Shown: positions 33,360-45,395, counted from the stretch's first letter. The stretch is 64,000 bases of DNA from an uncultured Candidatus Saccharibacteria bacterium (GCA_964565615.1 CAZMFO010000001.1:19513-83512), one strand, 5' to 3'. The notes: generated from the sequence alone by a model not told the origin. A program made the numbers and translations.

Positions 33360-35975
33360 ATGAAGAAAGTGCTTAAAAGAATACTTGGTGATCCACAGGC
33401 TAAGACGCTTAAGCGTCTAAAAAAACGGGTTAAAGAGATAAATGCTCTTGCTGATCAGTATAAAAAAATGTCAGACAAAAAGCTAAAAGAGCAAACTGCC
33501 GAGCTAAAAAAACAACTAAAAACCCAATCACTAGATAAGCTATTACCAGAGGCATTTGCGACGGTGCGCGAAGTAGCCACCAGAACATTAAAGCAGAGGC
33601 ATTTTGATGTTCAGTTAATAGGTGGGATGGTATTGCACGAAGGCAATGTTGCCGAAATGAAGACGGGTGAAGGCAAGACGCTAGTTGCTACTTTGCCGGT
33701 GTATTTAAATGCCTTGACTGAAAAGGGTGTGCATGTAGTAACAGTAAACGATTATTTAGCACAACGAGATGCTGGCTGGATGGGGCAGATTTATAACTTT
33801 TTGGGGTTAAGTGTAGCTGTAATTATTCCAGATGCGTCATTTATGTATGATCCAGAGTACATTAGCGATAAGCACGAGGACGAGCGTATGAAACACTTGC
33901 GTCCATGCACCAGACAGGAAGCATATCTTGCCGATATTACTTACGGAACAAATAACGAGTACGGTTTTGATTATTTGCGAGACAATATGGTGCGAGAAGA
34001 GCTTCAACTCCGCCAGAGGGATTTACATTTTGCCATTGTTGATGAGGTTGACTCTATTTTAATTGACGAGGCCAGAACCCCACTGATTATTTCGGCACCT
34101 GCGTCGGCCAGTGCAACAGCTTATGAGCAGTTTTCTAAGATAGTGCGAACTCTAGAAAACGAAAAACATTACGAAATTGACGAAAAGCGCCGAACTGTTG
34201 TTTTGAAGGATGAGGGTGTTGAAGCAATAGAAAAAAAGCTAGGCATAGACAACCTTTATGCCAGCGAAAACATCAGAACAATTTATCATCTTGATCAAGC
34301 CCTCAAAGCACAAGCCATCTTTAAGCGAGACAAAGATTATGTTGTAACCAAAGACGGGGAGATTGTAATTGTTGATGAGTTCACTGGCCGATTGCTAAAA
34401 GGACGACGATACAATGAAGGGCTTCATCAGGCAATAGAGGCTAAAGAGGGTGTAGAAGTTAAGGAAGAATCTATGACTCTGGCAACAATTTCGTTTCAGA
34501 ACTATTTTCGTCTATACGAAAAACTATCTGGTATGACTGGAACGGCCGAGACAGAGAGTGAGGAATTCCACCAAATTTATAAGCTAGAGGTTATTGTTGT
34601 GCCCTCAAATAAACCGTTATCACGAATAGATCGTGGCGATCGCATATACAAAACAGAAGAGGGTAAGTTTCGGGCGATTATTAAAGAAGTCCAGATGTTA
34701 CACACTAAAGGTCAACCTGTCTTGATTGGTACAGCATCAATTGAGAAGAATGAAGTGCTTAGTAGTTTATTAAAAAAGGCAGGCATTCCTCATCAAGTAT
34801 TAAACGCTAAGAATAACGAGAAAGAGGCTACTATTGTCGCTAAGGCTGGGCAAAGAGGGGCTGTTACTTTGGCAACCAATATTGCCGGTCGTGGTACAGA
34901 TATTGTTCTTGATGAAGAAACAAAAAAACTCGGGGGCTTGTTTGTCTTGGGGTCGGAGCGACATGAATCTCGCCGAATTGACAATCAATTGAGGGGCCGT
35001 TCTGGCCGACAAGGCGATCCCGGTATGACTCAATTTTTTGTTAGTTGTGAGGACGATCTAATGCGAGTTTTTGGCGGTGATCGGATTCGTACTATGATGG
35101 AAAGATTAAAAGTAGATGACGAAACACCAATAGAGAACCGAATTATTTCGCGCAGTTTAGAGGCGGCCCAAAAAAAGGTAGAGGGTTTTAACTTTGATCA
35201 ACGAAAAAATGTCGTACAGTATGACGATGTAATGAATCGTCATCGTAAGGCAACTTATGCTATTCGTAAAGAAATACTAAAAGATGGCGATATTAGCAAA
35301 AGGATACGGGCGTTTATTAAAGACGAGGCAAAGCTAGTTAGTGGATCGCCAGAGTCGCATCACCCAGATTTTGAGGACATACTAACAGAGGTCTTTCCAT
35401 TTGATGAGGCGACGCTAGATATTATATTTGATGCTGACCACGATAAATTTGCTGATGTATTAACGACAAAAGCCCTAGAGTTGTATGAAGCAAGAGAATC
35501 AGCCTTTGGCGATAAAATTATGAGGGCAATAGAGCGCGAAATATATTTACAAATACTGGATAATTTGTGGATGCAACACCTAGAAAGTATGGCTCATTTG
35601 CGAGAAGGCATTAATTGGATTAGTGTCGGGCAAAAGGATCCACTGGTTGAATATAGAAGAAAATCGCAACAACTTTTTGAGGAGATGCAACTTAGATTAA
35701 GGTCTGACATTGTTCGGGCTATATTTTCTGCTCAACCTGTTGAACACGAACACCCTGTGGATACTGATTTAACTCGCGCCGCCAAGCACTCGGTTGACAA
35801 TGCCGATAAAATTTTAGAGGTCGAGGAACTACATGAAGAAGATTTTGCTACGCCAAGAGCAGATAGTCATCTTTTGGCAGACAATAGGTCAACAAAAAAA
35901 CAAATAACCGCCAAAACAAGAAAGAAATCACGAAAAGCAGAACGAAAGCGTCGTACTAAGGGCCGAAAAAAGTAA
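33360..35975 (+). CDS. secA: Preprotein translocase ATPase SecA
   Basis: N-terminal MKKVLKRILGDPQAK, DEAD-like motor motifs, 871 aa. Confidence 0.95.
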   Translation: MKKVLKRILGDPQAKTLKRLKKRVKEINALADQYKKMSDKKLKEQTAELKKQLKTQSLDKLLPEAFATVREVATRTLKQRHFDVQLIGGMVLHEGNVAEMKTGEGKTLVATLPVYLNALTEKGVHVVTVNDYLAQRDAGWMGQIYNFLGLSVAVIIPDASFMYDPEYISDKHEDERMKHLRPCTRQEAYLADITYGTNNEYGFDYLRDNMVREELQLRQRDLHFAIVDEVDSILIDEARTPLIISAPASASATAYEQFSKIVRTLENEKHYEIDEKRRTVVLKDEGVEAIEKKLGIDNLYASENIRTIYHLDQALKAQAIFKRDKDYVVTKDGEIVIVDEFTGRLLKGRRYNEGLHQAIEAKEGVEVKEESMTLATISFQNYFRLYEKLSGMTGTAETESEEFHQIYKLEVIVVPSNKPLSRIDRGDRIYKTEEGKFRAIIKEVQMLHTKGQPVLIGTASIEKNEVLSSLLKKAGIPHQVLNAKNNEKEATIVAKAGQRGAVTLATNIAGRGTDIVLDEETKKLGGLFVLGSERHESRRIDNQLRGRSGRQGDPGMTQFFVSCEDDLMRVFGGDRIRTMMERLKVDDETPIENRIISRSLEAAQKKVEGFNFDQRKNVVQYDDVMNRHRKATYAIRKEILKDGDISKRIRAFIKDEAKLVSGSPESHHPDFEDILTEVFPFDEATLDIIFDADHDKFADVLTTKALELYEARESAFGDKIMRAIEREIYLQILDNLWMQHLESMAHLREGINWISVGQKDPLVEYRRKSQQLFEEMQLRLRSDIVRAIFSAQPVEHEHPVDTDLTRAAKHSVDNADKILEVEELHEEDFATPRADSHLLADNRSTKKQITAKTRKKSRKAERKRRTKGRKK

Positions 35976-35978
35976 CCT

Positions 35979-37271
35979 ATGAAGCATAGTGTAACTCATC
36001 TTGATTTATCAAATGGAGCAAAAGGCTTGTTGGTAAATATCCCTGACGCCACAGTAATGACCTTTGAAATAAATTTTCGGGCAGGAGAGTATTTGGTTGA
36101 GCAACAAAAATGGGAAACGCCACATTTAATGGAGCATGTGCTACTAGGTGCTAATGAAGCCTACAGAAAATCTCGCGATTTTCAGGCAGAACTTGAAAAA
36201 AATGGAGCATACGCCAATGCTAGCACGGGCAGTTATGATATAACATACGAGGCAGAATGTGCTGATTTTGAGTGGGATAGAATTTTGGGCTTGCTGGTTT
36301 TGGCGATCTCTAAGCCCCTTTTTTTACAAGAAGAATTTGATTCGGAGTCTCGCAATGTGCGAGAGGAATTGTTCTCTCGTTCTAACAACCACTTTAGGCA
36401 TCTAAACCTAGCGCTTCGTAAGGAGTATGGGTTTGTGGCGTTAACCGATCAAGAGAGATTAAAGCTGATGGACAATGTAACAATTACCGATATCATTGAG
36501 CATTACAAAAAAACTCATCGGGCGCCAAATATGCGTTTTGTGATTGCTGGCAACTTAACAAAGTCTCGAAAAGAAATAATAGAAAAGTTACTGGGGAATA
36601 TTGAACTACCCGAAGAGGGTTATCGCACTCCTTTGCCAGACGAAACTCCAATATCTCAAAAAAAACCATTATTTATCAAGAACCCGACGGTAGAGAACTT
36701 ATATTTCTATCTAGATACATTTATTCGTCGACGACTTACTGATAGCGAGAGCTATGCTATGATGTTAACCAATGCTATCTTAACGGAGACCCTACACTCA
36801 CGGATTTATGGTCAAGCACGAGAAAAAGGTTTAATTTACGGCGTTAGCTCAAATTATGCTAGATTACTGGGTTCGTCAAATTTTTGGCTAGGAGCTCAAG
36901 TTATGCCGAGCAATGTAGAGGGGTTGTTTAAAATAATAACGACCGAGATTACCCAATTAAAAAATGGAAAGTTTAGTGATGATGAGCTAAAGTCTGCAAA
37001 ATTATTTGCTTTAGGCCGTTTTCAACGAAGCGCCCAAACCGTTTCTAGCACAGCAAACTTATACAGTAGTCGGTATTTTTACGAGGAAGAGGTTGAAGGT
37101 TACTATGAAGTACCAGATAAAATACAAGCAGTATCTAGAGACCAACTTGAGGCCGTCATTAACGCAATGTTTTCTGAAGGAATTAGGGGTTTTGGAGTTT
37201 TGGGGAGCTGTGGTTATGATTTTGCCGTTCATGCGAATAAACAGCTAGATAGTCTTTGGCGAAACGAGTAG
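35979..37271 (+). CDS. M16-family (pitrilysin-like) zinc peptidase
   Basis: Inverted zinc motif HLMEH (HxxEH) near the N-terminus. Confidence 0.75.
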   Translation: MKHSVTHLDLSNGAKGLLVNIPDATVMTFEINFRAGEYLVEQQKWETPHLMEHVLLGANEAYRKSRDFQAELEKNGAYANASTGSYDITYEAECADFEWDRILGLLVLAISKPLFLQEEFDSESRNVREELFSRSNNHFRHLNLALRKEYGFVALTDQERLKLMDNVTITDIIEHYKKTHRAPNMRFVIAGNLTKSRKEIIEKLLGNIELPEEGYRTPLPDETPISQKKPLFIKNPTVENLYFYLDTFIRRRLTDSESYAMMLTNAILTETLHSRIYGQAREKGLIYGVSSNYARLLGSSNFWLGAQVMPSNVEGLFKIITTEITQLKNGKFSDDELKSAKLFALGRFQRSAQTVSSTANLYSSRYFYEEEVEGYYEVPDKIQAVSRDQLEAVINAMFSEGIRGFGVLGSCGYDFAVHANKQLDSLWRNE

Positions 37272-37278
37272 AGGTTTT

Positions 37279-38373
37279 ATGTCAGAATTAACCGTAAATA
37301 TAAAGAGCTTACTTGACGAAATAAATAATGCTTATCGTCAGTTGGGTATAGATAATTTACAGGTTGAGATAAAGAGGCTAGAGCAAGAAAGTACTCAACC
37401 AGAGTTTTGGAATAATCCTAACAATGCTCAAAATATAATGAAGGATATTTCTAGCTTGCAAGCTCGCGCAAATCCGTGGCTAGAGTTAAAAAAGTCAACC
37501 GAGGAGTTGGTAGATCTAGAAGCACTAGATGATTTATCTCTAAAACAAGAGCTACAAAATACATATTCTAAGCTTTTGGACGAATATCAGGTTTTAAAAA
37601 AGCAACTAGCTTTTAGTGGGCCGTATGATGACCACGATGTCATTTTGTCAATATATGCAGGGGCTGGCGGAACGGATGCACAGGACTGGGCATCAATGTT
37701 GTTGCGGATGTATGTACGCTGGGTTGAGTCCGAGGGCGGTCAGGTAGAGATTATTGAACAGTCAGTAGCCGACGAGGCCGGAATAAAAAGTGCCACCTGT
37801 AGCATTTCGGGGATCTCTTTTGGGTATGGAAGGCTAAAAAGTGAGCATGGTGTACATAGACTAGTTAGGCTTAGTCCTTTTAATTCTGATAATTTGCGAC
37901 AGACTAGCTTTGCTAAAGTTGATATTATCCCTAAAATTGATAAACCGAACGAGGTTAAGATTAGCGATGACGATCTTAAAGTAGATGTTTTTCGGTCGGG
38001 TGGGCACGGTGGTCAATCGGTAAACACTACCGATTCGGCGGTGCGAGTAACTCATCTGCCAACTGGCATTACGGTAAGTATTCAAAATGAGCGGTCGCAA
38101 TTGCAGAACAAAGAAACAGCGTTAACCATTTTAAGGTCAAAACTGGCTCAACTTCAGCTTATTCAACATAAAGATAAGCTACAGGATATCAAGGGGCCAA
38201 ATCAATCGGCGGAATGGGGTAATCAGATTAGAAGTTATGTACTGCACCCTTATAAACAGGTTAAAGACTTACGGACTCAATATGAAGCAAGCGACCCTGA
38301 TAAAATACTAAATGGTGATATTAATGGGTTGATAAACGCCTATATTGAGCAAAACTTGGGTTCTCAAGCATAA
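37279..38373 (+). CDS. prfB: Peptide chain release factor 2 (single uninterrupted ORF)
   Basis: SPF tripeptide (RLSPFNSDN). GGQ ([23 protein letters not shown]). Confidence 0.9.
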   Translation: MSELTVNIKSLLDEINNAYRQLGIDNLQVEIKRLEQESTQPEFWNNPNNAQNIMKDISSLQARANPWLELKKSTEELVDLEALDDLSLKQELQNTYSKLLDEYQVLKKQLAFSGPYDDHDVILSIYAGAGGTDAQDWASMLLRMYVRWVESEGGQVEIIEQSVADEAGIKSATCSISGISFGYGRLKSEHGVHRLVRLSPFNSDNLRQTSFAKVDIIPKIDKPNEVKISDDDLKVDVFRSGGHGGQSVNTTDSAVRVTHLPTGITVSIQNERSQLQNKETALTILRSKLAQLQLIQHKDKLQDIKGPNQSAEWGNQIRSYVLHPYKQVKDLRTQYEASDPDKILNGDINGLINAYIEQNLGSQA

Positions 38374-38397
38374 TCAATTTGGTATAATAGAGTTTGA

Positions 38398-39081
38398 ATG
38401 ATTTTATTGGATAGAGTTACAAAAGTTTATGGCAAATCTAACACGGCGCTTGATAGGGTTAGCCTACATGTTGAGCCCAAAGAGTTTGTGGTGATTGTGG
38501 GGCAAAGTGGTGCCGGCAAGTCAACCTTTTTGAAGTTACTCACCAGAGAGGAACGCCCAACGAGTGGAAAAATTATTGTCGGAGGAGTGGATTACGAACA
38601 TCTAAAGGATAAAAAAATACCTTTATTACGGCGAAAGATAGGGGTGGTGTTTCAAGATTTTAAATTATTGCCAAATAAAAATGTTTTTGAAAATGTTGCC
38701 TTTGCGCTAGAAATTGTTGGTATGGGTAACAAAGAAATACAATACACCGTACCTCGTGTTTTGAATATCGTCGGTTTAAGTGGTAAAGAAAAGAGCTATC
38801 CAAAAGAATTGTCTGGTGGCGAACGGCAACGCGTCGCTATCGCTAGAGCTATTGCTCGGCAACCTAAGATATTGATTGCCGATGAGCCTACCGGCAATTT
38901 GGACCCTAAACATGCTTGGGATGTAATAGCAGTTTTAGAAAAGATTAACAAGTACGGAACAACTGTTTTGCTGACCACTCATAATCAAGATATTGTCAAT
39001 AAATTAAAGCGTCGTGTTGTAACCATAACCGATGGGAAGATAGTGAGTGATAAGGTCGGCGGGGGTTACAAATTATTATGA
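38398..39081 (+). CDS. ftsE: Cell-division ABC ATPase FtsE
   Basis: GQSGAGKST Walker A, LSGGERQRVAIARA, Walker B ILIADEPTGNLD. Confidence 0.9.
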   Translation: MILLDRVTKVYGKSNTALDRVSLHVEPKEFVVIVGQSGAGKSTFLKLLTREERPTSGKIIVGGVDYEHLKDKKIPLLRRKIGVVFQDFKLLPNKNVFENVAFALEIVGMGNKEIQYTVPRVLNIVGLSGKEKSYPKELSGGERQRVAIARAIARQPKILIADEPTGNLDPKHAWDVIAVLEKINKYGTTVLLTTHNQDIVNKLKRRVVTITDGKIVSDKVGGGYKLL

Positions 39082-40022
39082 AGCGAAAGTTAATCACCTT
39101 GTCTAGAATCTTTAAGGGCGGACTGACTAATTTTGTGCGTAATGCTTGGTTAGCAATTGCCGCAATTGCTGTGATGGTCATTACCTTAACTATTGTACTT
39201 TTTTCGGTTATTGCCAACGCTACCTTTACAAACACTATAAAACAGATTACCGATAAAGTTGATATATCAATATATTTAAAAGACGAAACAAGCGATAAAG
39301 ACAAAGATCAAATACTTGAGAAACTAAAGTCCTTAACTAATGTAGAGAGCGTTTCGTATCTATCTAAGGATGATGCCAAAAACCAATTTATTGAAAAAAA
39401 CAAAGAAGACATAGAACTTAGATTATCTATCGGTCAGTCTGACGGCAATCCAATTCCGGCAACAATTCGGATTAAGCCCAAAGACATCAATAAGCTAGAA
39501 GAGCTAAGTAACGAGATCAACAATCAAGGCTGGGAGAGGTTCATTTTAAAGATTTCTTACCAAAAAGACAGAAAAACAGCTATTGATAATATCGCTAAAG
39601 CAACAACATTTTTCAAAAAGGCTAGTTTAGCAGGAGTTGTAGTATTTGCCATAATCTCTATGCTGATAATTTTTAACACTATTAGAATGGCTATCTTTAA
39701 TAGGCGAGAAGAGCTGGATATTATGCGCTTGCTGGGTGCCAGCACTTGGTATATTCGGGGCCCGTTTGTGGTTGAGACGGTGCTTTACGGTGTGATAGCG
39801 GCGTTGATCTCGGTATCGTTATGTAGGTTGTCACTAGAAGTTGCAGTATCGGCCTTTGGTGCTAACAGTTTAGGATTATTAGATATAGAATATGCCACTC
39901 AGTATTTCTCTAGACATTTTTGGTATGTTTCGGGTATTCAGTTAGCGGTTGGAGTACTAATCGGGGCAGTATCGTCTATGGTTGCTACCAGACGATATCT
40001 GAAGTTTAAAAGCAGTAAATAA
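39078..40022 (+). CDS. ftsX: Cell-division permease FtsX
   Basis: Four-TM FtsX layout with a large extracellular loop. Start overlaps the ftsE stop. Confidence 0.85.
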   Translation: MKRKLITLSRIFKGGLTNFVRNAWLAIAAIAVMVITLTIVLFSVIANATFTNTIKQITDKVDISIYLKDETSDKDKDQILEKLKSLTNVESVSYLSKDDAKNQFIEKNKEDIELRLSIGQSDGNPIPATIRIKPKDINKLEELSNEINNQGWERFILKISYQKDRKTAIDNIAKATTFFKKASLAGVVVFAIISMLIIFNTIRMAIFNRREELDIMRLLGASTWYIRGPFVVETVLYGVIAALISVSLCRLSLEVAVSAFGANSLGLLDIEYATQYFSRHFWYVSGIQLAVGVLIGAVSSMVATRRYLKFKSSK

Positions 40023-40099
40023 GACATTATTTTGTCAAGTAAGAGAGCCAATACTTAATTGGGGAGTTGTGATTATCAAATTTGGAGGTCTATGTTATT

Positions 40100-41260
40100 A
40101 TGTCAGTAGGTAGCTTTACCAAAAGAAAAATGAAAAACAAGTTAAACCAATGGTTAAAAATGTCTGGCGGTGCACTGCGACACCTATTTTTAGCTGTGCT
40201 TATGTTGGTAGTTGTGGCTGGTTTTGGCTTTGGTACTGCTTTACAGGTACGGGCTCAATCTCTTCAAGACCAGATAGATACATTAAAAAAGCAAAACATA
40301 GAGAATAAAAACAATGTTGAAAAACTGCAGGAAGTCGCCATCAGTTACCAGAATGCTATAGAAACCCTAGAACACGATATTGCCGAGACACAACAAGCAA
40401 TTGAGGCGAGCCATAAGCGTCAAGCAGAACTAGAAGCCCAGATTAAACAGGCAGAAGCTGATCTTGTTTTGCAAAAAGATTTTTTGAGCAAGAATATCAG
40501 AGCTATGTATTTAGAGGGGGATATTTCAACCCTAGAAATGTTAGCCTCTAGCAATAATTTAAGTGAATTTGTTGATAAACAACAGTATCGCAACTCTGTA
40601 AAAGAAAAGATAAGTCAATCTGTTAGTAAAATTAGCGATCTAAAACATCAATTACAAGCTCAAAAAGAGCAGGTGGAAGTAGAGCTAAAAGAGCAAAACA
40701 GCAGTAGAGTGCAGTTAGCCAGAAGTCGTGCCGAACAAAGTAGGTTGCTAACTATGAACGGAACGGAGCAAGCAGAGTTTAATAATAAAACAAAAGCAAA
40801 CGAGCAAAAAATTAAAGAATTACAGGAGGCTCAGAGGGCGCTTGAGCGGAGTATCGCATCTGGGAAGTTGGTTAGTCAAGGTCCGGTTAAGCGAGGTGAT
40901 GTAGTTGGAACGGTTGGCAATACCGGATTTTCAACAGGCCCACACTTGCATTTTGAAGCCCGAAACAGTGAGGGAGTAGATATGAACCCAAATAATTATA
41001 TTGGAAGTGGTTGGGACAGACCTGTTGAAGGTGGCTACATTTCTCAAAACTATGGTAATCCCGATTCGGTTTATTATAAAGGCTATCATACTGGGATTGA
41101 CTATGCTGGAGTGTCGGGTCGTCCTGTTAGGGCGGTTGCCGATGGCGAGATTGTCTGGCGAGGATGCAAGGGGTCCTGTAACCTTAATTATGGATATTAT
41201 GTTATGATACAACATACTAACGGCATAATTAGTTTATATGCCCATATGGTTCCAAACTAA
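40100..41260 (+). CDS. EnvC-like coiled-coil protein with a C-terminal M23 (LytM) domain whose halves appear in reversed order
   Basis: Long coiled coil. GTVGNTGFSTGPHLHFE (normally the C-terminal M23 HxH box) comes before YHTGIDYAG...RPVRAVADGEIV...LYAHM (normally the N-terminal HxxxD box). SD GGAGG 11 nt before ATG 40100. Confidence 0.7.
   Translation: MSVGSFTKRKMKNKLNQWLKMSGGALRHLFLAVLMLVVVAGFGFGTALQVRAQSLQDQIDTLKKQNIENKNNVEKLQEVAISYQNAIETLEHDIAETQQAIEASHKRQAELEAQIKQAEADLVLQKDFLSKNIRAMYLEGDISTLEMLASSNNLSEFVDKQQYRNSVKEKISQSVSKISDLKHQLQAQKEQVEVELKEQNSSRVQLARSRAEQSRLLTMNGTEQAEFNNKTKANEQKIKELQEAQRALERSIASGKLVSQGPVKRGDVVGTVGNTGFSTGPHLHFEARNSEGVDMNPNNYIGSGWDRPVEGGYISQNYGNPDSVYYKGYHTGIDYAGVSGRPVRAVADGEIVWRGCKGSCNLNYGYYVMIQHTNGIISLYAHMVPN
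40525..40610 (+). repeat. Gene-conversion-like tract shared with the downstream paralog (41666-41751), including a 48-nt identical core
   Basis: 40543-40590 is identical to 41684-41731. Both encode TLEMLASSNNLSEFVDKQQYRNSVKEKIS. Confidence 0.85.
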
Positions 41261-41273
41261 GAAGGTAGTGAAT

Positions 41274-42425
41274 ATGTCGTCAATTAAACTTCTATCAAGA
41301 AAAATCATAAGACCAAGCATAAGGATACTCTTAATGGGTTTAGTGATTATGATGATGGTTGCTTCTAGTTCGTTATGGATTAGTAGCGTAACGGCTGAAT
41401 CCACTCAAGAAGAGATAAGTAGATTAATACAAGAGAACTCCAATAATCAAAGCACAGTTTCTCGCTTGCAGGTTGAGGCTACTAGTTATCAGGATGCAAT
41501 TAATAAAATGCAGTCCGAGATTGCCGATTTAGAGGCCAAGTTACAGATAAATATCACCGAGCAGAATAGGCTTTCGGAGGAGATAAAAAAAGCCGAAGAG
41601 GAGCTGGCTAAGCAAAGGGATTTACTTGGTAAGAACATTAGGGCAATGTATGTAGAGGGTGAAATGTCAACCTTAGAAATGCTAGCCTCTAGCAATAATT
41701 TAAGTGAATTTGTTGATAAACAACAGTATCGTAACTCTGTTAAAGAGAAAATTAGCGAAACAGTCGTTAAAATTAACGACTTAAGACATCGGCTTAATGC
41801 GCAAAAAGAGCAAGTTGACAAACTGGTTGCCGAGCAAAACCAACAAAGAGAAAAACTGGCAATTAGTAAAAACGAGCAAAATCAGCTTCTCGCTTATAAT
41901 CAAAACCAGCAAACGGACTTTAATAACAAGATCAAAGCTAACTCTAGTCGGCTTCAACAGTTAATTGCCTCGCAACGCAATGCTAACTTTGCCGATGGTG
42001 GATATTACTTTATTCGTTTTTCTGGGCCGGTCGGAGAAATTAATCCGGCAAATTATGAGTATCGCGACTATGGGCATAGTCAGGCAGATGCACCTTGTCC
42101 CGGCCCTCCTGTTAGTGCAGATTCTATTGATCGGTGGGGTTATTGTACTCGGCAGTGCGTGTCTTATGCGGCATGGGCAGTGATGGCATCTGGAAGGTCA
42201 GCGCCTATAAGGTGGGGAGATGCTAAGAATTGGGTGGCTTCGGCATACGCCAATGGAGTGCCCGTTCTTCGCTCTGATCCAAAAAAAGGCGATGTAGCCA
42301 TTAGTACAAATGGATATTGGGGTCATGCTATGTATGTAGAAAGCGTTAACGGCAATCAATTTACTACATCCGAGTATAATACTAACCTAGACGGAAAACT
42401 GTACTTTAGAACAAGAACTTTCTAG
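41274..42425 (+). CDS. PcsB-like coiled-coil protein with a C-terminal CHAP amidase/peptidase domain
   Basis: Coiled coil paralogous to the upstream gene. CHAP Cys in GYCTRQCVSYAAW. His in GHAMYVESV. Confidence 0.75.
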   Translation: MSSIKLLSRKIIRPSIRILLMGLVIMMMVASSSLWISSVTAESTQEEISRLIQENSNNQSTVSRLQVEATSYQDAINKMQSEIADLEAKLQINITEQNRLSEEIKKAEEELAKQRDLLGKNIRAMYVEGEMSTLEMLASSNNLSEFVDKQQYRNSVKEKISETVVKINDLRHRLNAQKEQVDKLVAEQNQQREKLAISKNEQNQLLAYNQNQQTDFNNKIKANSSRLQQLIASQRNANFADGGYYFIRFSGPVGEINPANYEYRDYGHSQADAPCPGPPVSADSIDRWGYCTRQCVSYAAWAVMASGRSAPIRWGDAKNWVASAYANGVPVLRSDPKKGDVAISTNGYWGHAMYVESVNGNQFTTSEYNTNLDGKLYFRTRTF

Positions 42426-42492
42426 AAAAACACTAGAACTTCTGGGGATTAATCTACTATAATAAGAAGCGAAAACAGAAGGGAGTTTTTTG

Positions 42493-43695
42493 GTGCAGGA
42501 TGAAAAAAAACGAGGAATCAGTAAGGGTATCTTTAAGGCTTGGTTAGTTGGTCTAGGTCTTTTTGCGATATTTAGTTTTGGTTATGGTTTGGGGTCGGGC
42601 AATCTTAAGATAGGGGTTAGGCAATCAAAACAGAACAGTCAACTATCATCAAGTCTTGATTTTGCGTCTGTAGAGAAGGTTTATGATTTATTGCGGAATA
42701 ATTTTGATGGTCAGCTTGATTTTACAAAGCTAACAGACGGTATGAAGCAGGGGCTGGTCAATGCAATAGGCGACCCCCATACCGAGTTTATGACAGTCGA
42801 ACAAACTAAGGAATTTAACGATGATCTTAATGGAACATTTAGCGGAATAGGTGCTGAACTTAGCAAAGAAAAAGATATGATTGTTGTGGTTTCGCCAATT
42901 TCTGGGTTTCCTGCCGAGAAAGCCGGACTTAAGGCTAAAGATGCAATAGTTGAGGTTGACGGAGAGAATACTTATGGATTAAGTCTAACAGAGGTAGTAA
43001 GCCGAATTCGGGGTCCTGAAGGAACCGATGTTAAATTGAGGGTAGTTCGTAATCAGCAAGAAGATTTAAAGTTTACAATAAAGCGCGCTAACATCACTAT
43101 TGCTAGCACCGAAGGAAAGATGCTTGAGAATAATACCGGGTATATTAAAATAACTAGATTTTCTGACGATACAACTCAGTTAACAAGAGATCTGGCCAAG
43201 ACTTTGAAGCAACAAGGTGCCAAAGACTTCATCTTAGATCTTAGGGGTAATCCGGGAGGATTGCTTGATAGTGCAGTTGATGTTTCAAGTATTTGGTTGT
43301 CAAGCGGAAAGACCGTTTTACAAGAAAAGCGTGATGGGGTTGTCATTAAGACATATAAAGCAAAGGGAAACGCTTTACTAGAGGGAGTGCCAACCATCGT
43401 TCTGATAGATGGCTCTAGTGCTAGTGCAAGCGAAATAGTTGCCGGAGCTTTAAGGGATAATAATGCCTCAAAATTACTTGGCGTAAAGAGTTATGGCAAG
43501 GGCAGTGTTCAAACTGTTGAAGAATTAGCAGACGGTTCATCATTAAAAGTGACTGTCGCTCACTGGTTTACTCCTAATGGTCAAACAATTGATAAGCAAG
43601 GTTTAGATCCAGATATTAAAGTCGAGTCGTCTTCGGATTCGGAAAGTGATGTTCAATTAAAGTCAGCCCAAGAAGAACTCTTAAAGCAACGATAA
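42493..43695 (+). CDS. C-terminal processing (tail-specific) S41 peptidase with PDZ
   Basis: FSGIGAEL, PDZ (PAEKAGLKAKDAIVEVDG), DLRGNPGG catalytic Ser region. Confidence 0.85.
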   Translation: MQDEKKRGISKGIFKAWLVGLGLFAIFSFGYGLGSGNLKIGVRQSKQNSQLSSSLDFASVEKVYDLLRNNFDGQLDFTKLTDGMKQGLVNAIGDPHTEFMTVEQTKEFNDDLNGTFSGIGAELSKEKDMIVVVSPISGFPAEKAGLKAKDAIVEVDGENTYGLSLTEVVSRIRGPEGTDVKLRVVRNQQEDLKFTIKRANITIASTEGKMLENNTGYIKITRFSDDTTQLTRDLAKTLKQQGAKDFILDLRGNPGGLLDSAVDVSSIWLSSGKTVLQEKRDGVVIKTYKAKGNALLEGVPTIVLIDGSSASASEIVAGALRDNNASKLLGVKSYGKGSVQTVEELADGSSLKVTVAHWFTPNGQTIDKQGLDPDIKVESSSDSESDVQLKSAQEELLKQR

Positions 43696-43784
43696 TAAGA
43701 TTTGCTGGGTATGATAATCTTGTGGTAGTATCATAACAGTTGAGTTTAACATTAATGTTAATTTGCATAGAAGAGGAGTGAATA

Positions 43785-45395
43785 GTGGCGCTGAAGAAGC
43801 GACAGACAAGATATATTTTTGTAACAGGTGGCGTGCTTTCGGGTTTGGGCAAGGGCATTACCGCCGCCTCAATCGGTAACATACTAAAAGCTCGTGGGCT
43901 ATCTATTAACATCCAGAAACTTGACCCTTATCTAAATGTTGATGCGGGTACTTTAAATCCGGCCGAGCATGGTGAATGTTTTGTGACGGCAGATGGAGCC
44001 GAGACCGATCTAGATCTTGGCCATTATGAGCGTTTTTTAGATATAGAAACAACTCAACAAAGTTCGGTTATGAGCGGGCGAATATTACGCCGATTAATTG
44101 AAGACGAACGAGCCGGCAAGTTTTTAGGTAAAACCGTGCAGGTTGTTCCGCATTTAACTGATGCTATTCAAGAGTATATCAAAGAGGCCAGCCAGAACTA
44201 CGATGTTCATATTGTTGAGATTGGTGGAACGGTCGGCGATTATGAGAGCCCAGCATTTTTTGAGGCAATTAGAGAATTTGCTAACCAAGTGGGGCGTGAT
44301 AACTGCCTTTATGTTCAGGTCGTTTATCTGCCATACCTAGAGGCCAGCAAAGAGATAAAAACTAAGCCAGCTCAAAATGCTACAAGGGAGTTAAGGAGCA
44401 TCGGAATCGTGCCAGATTTGTTAGTAGCCCGTTGTGAGCAATCAACGAGTGACGAAGTTCGGCATAAGTTGAGTGCTTTTTGTGGGGTTCCAAAAGAGGG
44501 GATTGCCATATTGCCCAATGCCAAAACGGTTTACGAAGTCCCTTTGACGCTTGAAGATCAAGGTATCGGAGAGTATGTAGCAAATAGGTTAGGGTTACGA
44601 ACCAAACGACCACAGTTAAAACCGTGGCATCAAGTAGTTAACCGAGCATTAACTAAGTTTGATGACAAGGTAACTGTCGGGGTTGTTGCTAAATATATGG
44701 ACAATCAAGATACTTATATGTCCGTTTTTGAGGCATTAAAATCGGCATCTTGGTGGTTGGGAGTCAATTTAAGTATTTTGTGGATAGATGCCGAGAAACT
44801 TGAAGGTGTTGGCTCAAATTTGTCTGGCAAATTGCGTAAAGTTGATGGAATTGTTGTGCCGGGTGGATTTGGCTCACGGGGGGTAGAGGGCAAGATTAGG
44901 TCTGCTCAATGGTCTCTCAAGCATAACTTGCCATACTTAGGTATTTGCTTAGGGTTACAGGTAGGGGTTATTGCTTCGGCGCGGAACGCTGGCCTGCACG
45001 ATGCAAGCTCAACAGAGATCAACCCTAGCACATTACACCCAGTTATTCATACTATGGAAGAGCAGAAAGGCAAGGAAGGTACCGGCGGGAGTATGCGATT
45101 AGGTAATTATCCTTGCGTTTTGATTAAGGGTAGTATCGCAGAGCGAGCTTATGCCAAGAAAAATATAATCGAGCGACATCGACATCGGTACGAGTGTAAT
45201 AATGATTATCGTGATCAATATGATTCGTGGGGGATTTTTGCATCAGGAACATCGCCAGATAATCATTTAGTAGAGGTTATTGAGGCAAAAGATCATAAGT
45301 TTTTTGTAGCCAGTCAGTTTCATCCTGAGTTTACTTCTCGTCCAAATCGTCCACAGCCATTATTTGTGGAGTTTATAAAGAGTTGTAAAAAATGA
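43785..45395 (+). CDS. pyrG: CTP synthase
   Basis: RYIFVTGGVLSGLGKGITAASIG. Glutamine amidotransferase Cys (LGICLGLQ). Confidence 0.95.
   Translation: MALKKRQTRYIFVTGGVLSGLGKGITAASIGNILKARGLSINIQKLDPYLNVDAGTLNPAEHGECFVTADGAETDLDLGHYERFLDIETTQQSSVMSGRILRRLIEDERAGKFLGKTVQVVPHLTDAIQEYIKEASQNYDVHIVEIGGTVGDYESPAFFEAIREFANQVGRDNCLYVQVVYLPYLEASKEIKTKPAQNATRELRSIGIVPDLLVARCEQSTSDEVRHKLSAFCGVPKEGIAILPNAKTVYEVPLTLEDQGIGEYVANRLGLRTKRPQLKPWHQVVNRALTKFDDKVTVGVVAKYMDNQDTYMSVFEALKSASWWLGVNLSILWIDAEKLEGVGSNLSGKLRKVDGIVVPGGFGSRGVEGKIRSAQWSLKHNLPYLGICLGLQVGVIASARNAGLHDASSTEINPSTLHPVIHTMEEQKGKEGTGGSMRLGNYPCVLIKGSIAERAYAKKNIIERHRHRYECNNDYRDQYDSWGIFASGTSPDNHLVEVIEAKDHKFFVASQFHPEFTSRPNRPQPLFVEFIKSCKK

Follow-up and report, generated by a model that had tools for sequence, protein, structure and literature searches.

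The gene and its predicted product

The stretch of DNA analyzed here (the window, 64,000 nucleotides; CAZMFO010000001.1:19513-83512) comes from an uncultured Candidatus Saccharibacteria bacterium. It carries the gene order secA, M16 peptidase, prfB, ftsE, ftsX, a gene for a coiled-coil protein with a C-terminal M23 (LytM-type) peptidase domain, a coiled-coil CHAP paralog, an S41 protease, and pyrG. The subject of this report is the M23 gene (40100..41260), whose peptidase domain is circularly permuted, with the half that is C-terminal in canonical enzymes coming first. All features given with coordinates lie on the plus strand. The gene encodes a 386-residue protein, and the exact product is on record in a public protein collection. 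The mechanical open reading frame (ORF) spans 40082-41260 and begins with the TTG at 40082; the true start is the ATG at 40100, with a GGAGG at 40084-40088 lying 11 nt upstream. Residue numbers refer to the 386-residue product, and ORF numbering runs 6 higher (335-389 in the ORF are residues 329-383 here).

Near the N terminus, the sequence and a full-length AlphaFold2 model (predicted local distance difference test [pLDDT], 84.6) both place a hydrophobic helix at residues 24-42 (LFLAVLMLVVVAGFGFGTAL; 40169..40225). This helix is predicted to anchor the protein in the membrane or to act as a signal sequence, which would place the remainder of the protein outside the cytoplasm. A coiled-coil hairpin of the EnvC/PcsB/RipC type follows (40262..40858), in which the model places two very long helices (residues 55-140 and 154-253) bridged by a short one (residues 144-150); a conserved motif, STLEMLASSNNLSEFVDKQQYRNSV, marks the hairpin tip. 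The model ends in a beta-rich C-terminal domain (residues 262-386).

This domain contains both M23 halves. The first in the gene corresponds to the canonical C-terminal half (GDVVGTVGNTGFSTGPHLHFE...NP; 40877..40990; Pfam profile positions 60-96) and carries H282 (codon 40943-40945) and H284 (40949-40951). The junction (40991..41083), delimited from the family alignment, the re-permuted alignment described below, and the model, comprises the old C terminus NPNNY, a short linker, IGSG, and the old N-terminal strand, WDRPVEGGYISQNYG. The second half in the gene is the canonical N-terminal half (YHTGIDYA...YAHM; 41084..41248; profile positions 2-52), with H330 (41087-41089), D334 (41099-41101), H372 (41213-41215), and H382 (41243-41245). 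Only the tail VPN and the stop codon remain (41249..41260), and in translation the chain ends 4 residues past the catalytic histidine. The original prediction, made from the sequence without database searches, had placed the permuted domain at 40850-41260; the sequence that it quoted is present in the ORF, although the domain itself starts at ~40877.

Order of the M23 halves and its conservation

Pfam PF01551 matches the protein in two stretches that sum to 78.9 bits against a cutoff of 28.7. When the pieces were scanned alone, the earlier one (residues 260-297) matched profile positions 60-96 (E = 3e-10), and the later one (residues 329-383) matched positions 2-52 (E = 5e-13). Each half thus exceeds the PF01551 threshold by itself (40.6 and 49.4 bits), and given these E values, a chance match of the halves is excluded. 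The order of the profile segments, 60-96 before 2-52, is the one that the original prediction had anticipated from motifs. In the translated sequence the HxH box comes first, followed by HxxxD and then YxH, which is not the collinear order of canonical M23 domains. As had also been predicted, no HxxxD box occurs upstream and no HxH box occurs downstream in this protein, in which the stop follows directly on YAHMVPN.

A phmmer search of the PDB gave the same picture. Residues 329-383 pair with residues 245-295 of chain 3slu_A, and residues 259-297 pair with residues 301-338, so that the natural order reaches 70.6 bits in two stretches. The two profile segments are complementary, with zero overlap and a complete core, and join in a loop of ~5 residues. 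When the second piece was put before the first in silico, the re-permuted sequence matched PF01551 from position 2 to position 96 of 96 in a single stretch at 93.3 bits. It also gave single-stretch matches to 39 solved M23 chains, including 3slu (245-338; 89 bits) and 5kqb (residues 1-116). The two segments thus cover the parent domain exactly once, and exchanging them recovers a full-length collinear match, as expected of a circular permutant. Where the pieces were joined artificially, YAHMVPN+GKLVSQGPVKRGD lines up with YAHLSAFS--QAQGNVRGGE from a canonical enzyme, implying that the natural chain end and the natural domain start are neighboring positions of one loop. In the canonical chain, the cut falls in the loop that connects the YxH[LM] strand to the V.xGD.+G strand; the HxH half is fused straight onto the end of the coiled coil, and the old C terminus, NPxxY, is joined to the old N terminus, W.xP..G, by a few residues.

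An alternative raised with the original prediction was that the two segments belong to separate, individually incomplete M23 copies that cannot form one fold. Their complementarity and the 93.3-bit match of the re-permuted sequence speak against this. Moreover, no additional half-copy flanks the domain, which has coiled coil upstream and a stop downstream, unlike the tandem M23 proteins P0269 and P0271. When the domain was modeled in its natural order by AlphaFold2, with 40 family sequences as the sole alignment, it formed one compact domain (pLDDT, 94.0; predicted template modeling score [pTM], 0.89), with pLDDT values of 95 to 98 across the junction of the old termini. The halves thus probably come together as a single, ordinary M23 fold that would bind zinc.

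The swapped order is widespread, occurring throughout a large family of the ultra-small Patescibacteria. A full HMMER search over 1.84 billion cluster representatives (50%-identity clusters) recovered at least 150 proteins at E < 1e-30. HxH precedes HxxxD in at least 99 of the 150 best representatives (28 to 53% identity), and these permuted representatives align collinearly with the query over the coiled coil and on through the final residues. None of the 150 has the canonical order, which settles in favor of permutation the question of ortholog order that the original prediction had raised; the rest are CHAP paralogs, fragments, or members of a subgroup with an HRGxGWPGGxD variant. P0186, the sole protein called canonical by a regular expression, turned out to have a scrambled C terminus in which the HxH half likewise comes directly after the coiled coil. 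In P0181, P0204, P0208, and P0220, SHRGxGWPGGxD replaces HxGxD, that is, the histidine-to-aspartate spacing is longer; a similar motif, HRNRGSFGVD, occurs in gp33 of Synechococcus phage P60. Where source labels are given, they name Candidatus Saccharibacteria, the Patescibacteria group, and Candidatus Berkelbacteria. Databases name family members generically or as EnvC, the Joint Genome Institute (JGI) calling P0119 "septal ring factor EnvC (AmiA/AmiB activator)," and no NCBIfam model attains its cutoff for the window protein.

Closer relatives agree with the window gene in detail. A protein homology search returned mostly canonical M23 proteins, along with P0270, P0272, and tandem M23 proteins. 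It also gave P0001, which comes from another assembly, is 83% identical, and has both the stop and the downstream CHAP gene in common with the window gene, and P0002 (67% identical, with the same half order). A contig of a different metagenome (L001; ~80% DNA identity, 84% mean column identity) shares the order, the stop, and the downstream CHAP gene, and a complete Berkelbacteria chromosome (L002) has the same half order, stop, and neighbors. Alignments of 40 and of 90 members show no variation at H282, H284, H330, D334, and H382 and almost none at H372. Across the domain, the window and L001 differ at far fewer nonsynonymous (pN, 0.10) than synonymous (pS, 0.90; saturated) sites, indicating that the M23 domain is under purifying selection. 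Judged by these comparisons, the permutation is real, family-wide, and, with members down to 28% identity, old.

Family members differ in how their chains end. In 58 of 94, the chain stops no more than 5 residues past the catalytic histidine, and 31 have a longer C-terminal tail that always contains cysteine, accompanied in 27 of the 31 by a loop cysteine. Such tails, found in about one-third of the family (e.g., P0120-P0135), are 10 to 32 residues long and read PPSGG...C..SYGF, with the cysteine mostly paired with one in the RGC loop. This pairing suggests that the two form a disulfide staple. The window protein has two cysteines in its RGCKGSC loop (C355 and C359; codons within 41162-41176) and no long C-terminal tail.

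Gene neighborhood and possible origin

The gene two positions upstream, ftsE (38398..39081), encodes an ABC ATPase whose cluster is named "cell division transport system ATP-binding protein," and the immediately upstream ftsX (39078..40022) has Pfam matches to FtsX_ECD and the FtsX permease domain. Downstream lie the paralogous coiled-coil gene, which is PcsB-like with a C-terminal CHAP domain (41274..42425, with a mechanical ORF from 41238; PF24568 CC_PcsB plus CHAP), and a Pfam-assigned CtpA/CtpB-like S41 C-terminal processing protease with a PDZ domain, a conserved neighbor (42490..43695). In all seven other full loci (L002, L003, L082, L084, L089, L090, and L091), ftsE-ftsX lies directly upstream of the M23 gene. 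The S41 protease is downstream in five (L082, L084, L089, L090, and L091; not in L002 or L003), and L084, L089, and L091 also have a CHAP-domain gene next to the M23 gene. The gene order at 33360-45395 closely resembles that of a Candidatus Saccharibacteria metagenome-assembled genome locus (L084/L085), and the GC content is 40%. An Rfam scan of the 64-kb window found nothing, neither tRNA nor rRNA.

The M23 gene and its CHAP paralog share a 238-nt stretch (40440-40677 and 41581-41818, respectively) with 78% identity. It spans the tip of the coiled-coil hairpin, where STLEMLASSNNLSEFVDKQQYRNSVKEKIS is nearly identical in both proteins, and the rest of the two proteins is far less conserved. 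The shared stretch could reflect a common FtsX-binding surface or gene conversion.

Since Bacillota and Actinomycetota share the ftsE-ftsX-M23-S41 cluster with a canonical M23 gene, the Patescibacteria gene is, by synteny, the positional counterpart of the canonical gene, and the permutation evidently arose in place. A plausible route is duplication followed by truncation, in which a tandem M23-M23 duplicate would have lost its first N-terminal half and its last C-terminal half. Tandem proteins with two complete M23 domains are represented by P0269, P0271 (Oscillospiraceae), and P0275.

The same half order was also found in cyanophage proteins. A virion protein of cyanophage S-TIM54 (UYE97289; L087 887-3853, OP053362.1) matches the profile at positions 66-90 and then 2-55. 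Synechococcus phage P60 gp33 (L093 1-3003) has the swapped order at its extreme C terminus, STGPHLDV followed by HRNRGSFGVDF...YAFVHGTVPNA-stop, with HLD instead of HxH. Unlike the Patescibacteria family, however, these are ~1,000-residue virion or ejection proteins with neither a coiled coil nor an FtsEX context, and their identity is 19 to 29%. A tblastn search of the phage collection with the S-TIM54 permuted domain found only itself. Cyanophage virion proteins were the best full-length Foldseek matches of our domain model (query TM-score [TMq], 0.54 to 0.63; 143 to 153 columns). Clostridium perfringens phage "lysozyme-peptidase" hits that seemed to be permuted, with 92% query coverage in one tblastn piece, proved to have the canonical order upon translation.

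Taken together, these data make it quite likely that the catalytic module represents a true circular permutant of an M23 (LytM/lysostaphin-type) zinc endopeptidase domain within an FtsEX-associated coiled-coil peptidoglycan hydrolase of Patescibacteria. Some observations weigh against this reading. The divergent family member P0233 sits outside the ftsEX cluster, and the duplication-truncation origin draws solely on tandem M23 proteins in unrelated lineages. In addition, when Foldseek was run against BFVD, canonical phage M23 domains aligned over 68 to 86 columns (root mean square deviation, 2.5 to 3.7 Å) with weak E values (0.05 to 2.4); this length fits an aligner that is bound to sequence order and can use only the larger half. 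A Foldseek search of the PDB with the pLDDT-94 domain model listed no M23 chain, even though phmmer finds 35 to 39 with its sequence; structure searches bound to sequence order can thus miss circular permutants.

Function and comparison with known systems

The original prediction left it open whether the permuted domain is an active enzyme or a dead module like that of EnvC. We favor the former. The zinc-binding residues (two His and one Asp) and the catalytic pair of His residues in the HxxxD, YxH, and HxH boxes are all present (H330/D334, H382, and H282/H284). Given that these residues are invariant in the 90 aligned members, that the domain is under purifying selection, and that AlphaFold2 predicts one compact domain, an active peptidoglycan endopeptidase is the more likely product. 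The coiled coil would hold the enzyme on the extracellular domain of FtsX, as in EnvC, PcsB, and RipC, and the ATPase cycle of FtsE would switch the hydrolase during division. We would expect a working endopeptidase of the PcsB/RipC kind, in which a coiled coil carries the enzyme, and not an activator of amidases.

The permutation would shift the attachment of the coiled coil away from the strand at the far N terminus and into a loop that borders the active site. The coiled coil is predicted to enter the domain via the strand leading to the HxH box, and the chain would end just past the catalytic histidine, so that both the tether and the free C terminus could take part in gating. A more elaborate version holds that the permutation is adaptive, with FtsEX-driven movement of the coiled coil gating the active site and the cysteine-containing tail of about one-third of the members serving as a plug trimmed by the S41 protease; the cyanophage domains may even share its origin through exchange between phages and Patescibacteria. 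We regard this version as improbable, and gating by the new termini, like the tail as an S41 substrate, is speculation. To our knowledge, canonical M23 enzymes rely on N-terminal pro-regions and do not show such tail-plug latency.

Slightly less probable still is a catalytically dead regulatory module that activates another hydrolase, either the CHAP neighbor or an amidase, as Escherichia coli EnvC does with AmiA and AmiB. The overall architecture, the best structural match (EnvC in the FtsEX complex), the JGI annotation of P0119, and the second hydrolase encoded next door all point in this direction. Degenerate LytM activators such as EnvC and NlpD have, however, lost their catalytic residues, whereas all five zinc and catalytic residues are invariant in 90 diverged members here, and the canonical-order positional orthologs of other phyla keep them as well.

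Complementation in trans, whereby two subunits of a coiled-coil dimer would each contribute one half of a shared domain, HxH from the first and HxxxD from the second (three-dimensional domain swapping), strikes us as very unlikely. Coiled-coil proteins often oligomerize, and the order of the half-domains permits swapping in principle. Nevertheless, a single chain was modeled confidently as one domain, including over the junction (pLDDT, 95 to 98), the linker at the junction is short and keeps its position across the family, and EnvC, PcsB, and RipC bind FtsEX as single hairpins. We attach next to no weight to the idea of a decaying gene or of an error in assembly or annotation, with a rearranged or truncated M23 gene peculiar to this contig. 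Although the window itself is a single sequence, no search that we ran supports this, purifying selection is strong, and the same order, stop, and neighbors recur in the independent metagenome contig (~80% DNA identity), with the order also seen in the complete Berkelbacteria chromosome and in ~100 cluster representatives. The misassembly that the original prediction had entertained is likewise contradicted by the identical gene end in an independent assembly.

M23 enzymes (lysostaphin, LytM, EnvC, NlpD, ShyA, and DipM) are central to bacterial division and have been engineered as antibacterials. Full-text literature searches combining permutation with M23 or LytM returned nothing relevant, and a 2022 review of the M23 family does not mention permutation or topology variants (PMC9662197). 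We thus came across no account of a naturally permuted M23 domain in the literature searched; among cell-wall peptidases, the precedent is permuted NlpC/P60. The family described here implies that the M23 fold can be opened in the loop that follows the YxH strand, with its termini fused, and that an entire bacterial radiation uses the permuted form, probably as its main FtsEX-controlled division hydrolase. It would also provide a natural experiment in the regulation by FtsEX of a hydrolase whose tether adjoins the active site. The evolutionary path is testable, too, given that both canonical positional orthologs and tandem M23-M23 proteins exist. For annotation, an order-blind procedure yields "EnvC activator" or two partial M23 matches, where the invariant residues suggest active endopeptidases. 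The finding is relevant to protein evolution, FtsEX regulation, and M23 engineering.

Among systems of known structure, EnvC is the closest in architecture. The top Foldseek match of the full-length model in the PDB was EnvC of the Vibrio cholerae FtsEX-EnvC complex (8tzl_E; E = 2.5e-6), and further matches included E. coli EnvC bound to FtsX (6tpi_A), RipC of the FtsEX-RipC complex (8jia_E and 8idc_E), the RipA coiled coil (6ewy), and PcsB (4cgk). Like the window protein, EnvC (6tpi, 8tzl, and 8hd0) is a partner of FtsEX that consists of a coiled-coil hairpin followed by a LytM-type domain. The EnvC LytM domain, however, has the canonical order, is catalytically degenerate, and activates amidases, whereas that of the window protein is permuted with all catalytic residues invariant. 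The hairpin, the LytM-type domain, and the synteny with ftsEX are thus shared, but the degenerate LytM domain lacking zinc ligands is not. Since all ligands are invariant, the window protein should not, on present sequence comparisons, be filed as an EnvC-type activator despite its database names.

PcsB (Streptococcus pneumoniae), RipC (Mycobacterium tuberculosis), and CwlO (Bacillus subtilis) likely work on the same principle, with a C-terminal hydrolase carried by a coiled coil that docks on FtsX. The window protein has the same layout, a coiled coil and a C-terminal catalytic domain with intact residues encoded beside ftsEX, although the catalytic domains of PcsB, RipC, and CwlO are CHAP or NlpC/P60 cysteine peptidases rather than an M23 metallopeptidase.

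The nearest counterparts in genomic position are the coiled-coil M23 proteins of Bacillota and Actinomycetota (e.g., L014, L073, and L030), which came from a locus search with six close sequences; among the matches listed, most were canonical M23. They occupy the same place in an ftsE-ftsX-M23-S41 cluster and combine an anchor, a coiled coil, and a C-terminal M23 domain with a full catalytic set, but they run HxxxD...YxH...HxH and end at NPxxY, whereas the halves are swapped in the window protein, which ends at YxH[LM]. Their annotations are "murein hydrolase activator EnvC family" or "peptidoglycan DD-metalloendopeptidase family." The ftsE-ftsX-(coiled-coil M23)-S41 cluster recurs across phyla (L012, L014, L018, L030, L044, L066, and L073) with canonical, apparently catalytically intact M23 domains, and S41 proteases may partner with FtsEX-linked hydrolases in general.

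A precedent for the permutation itself comes from the permuted NlpC/P60 families (YaeF/poxvirus G6R and LRAT-like; Anantharaman and Aravind, 2003, as cited in PMC6403190). There, too, a cell-wall peptidase domain is permuted family-wide and the order of its catalytic residues is swapped, albeit in a different fold and with a different catalytic type.
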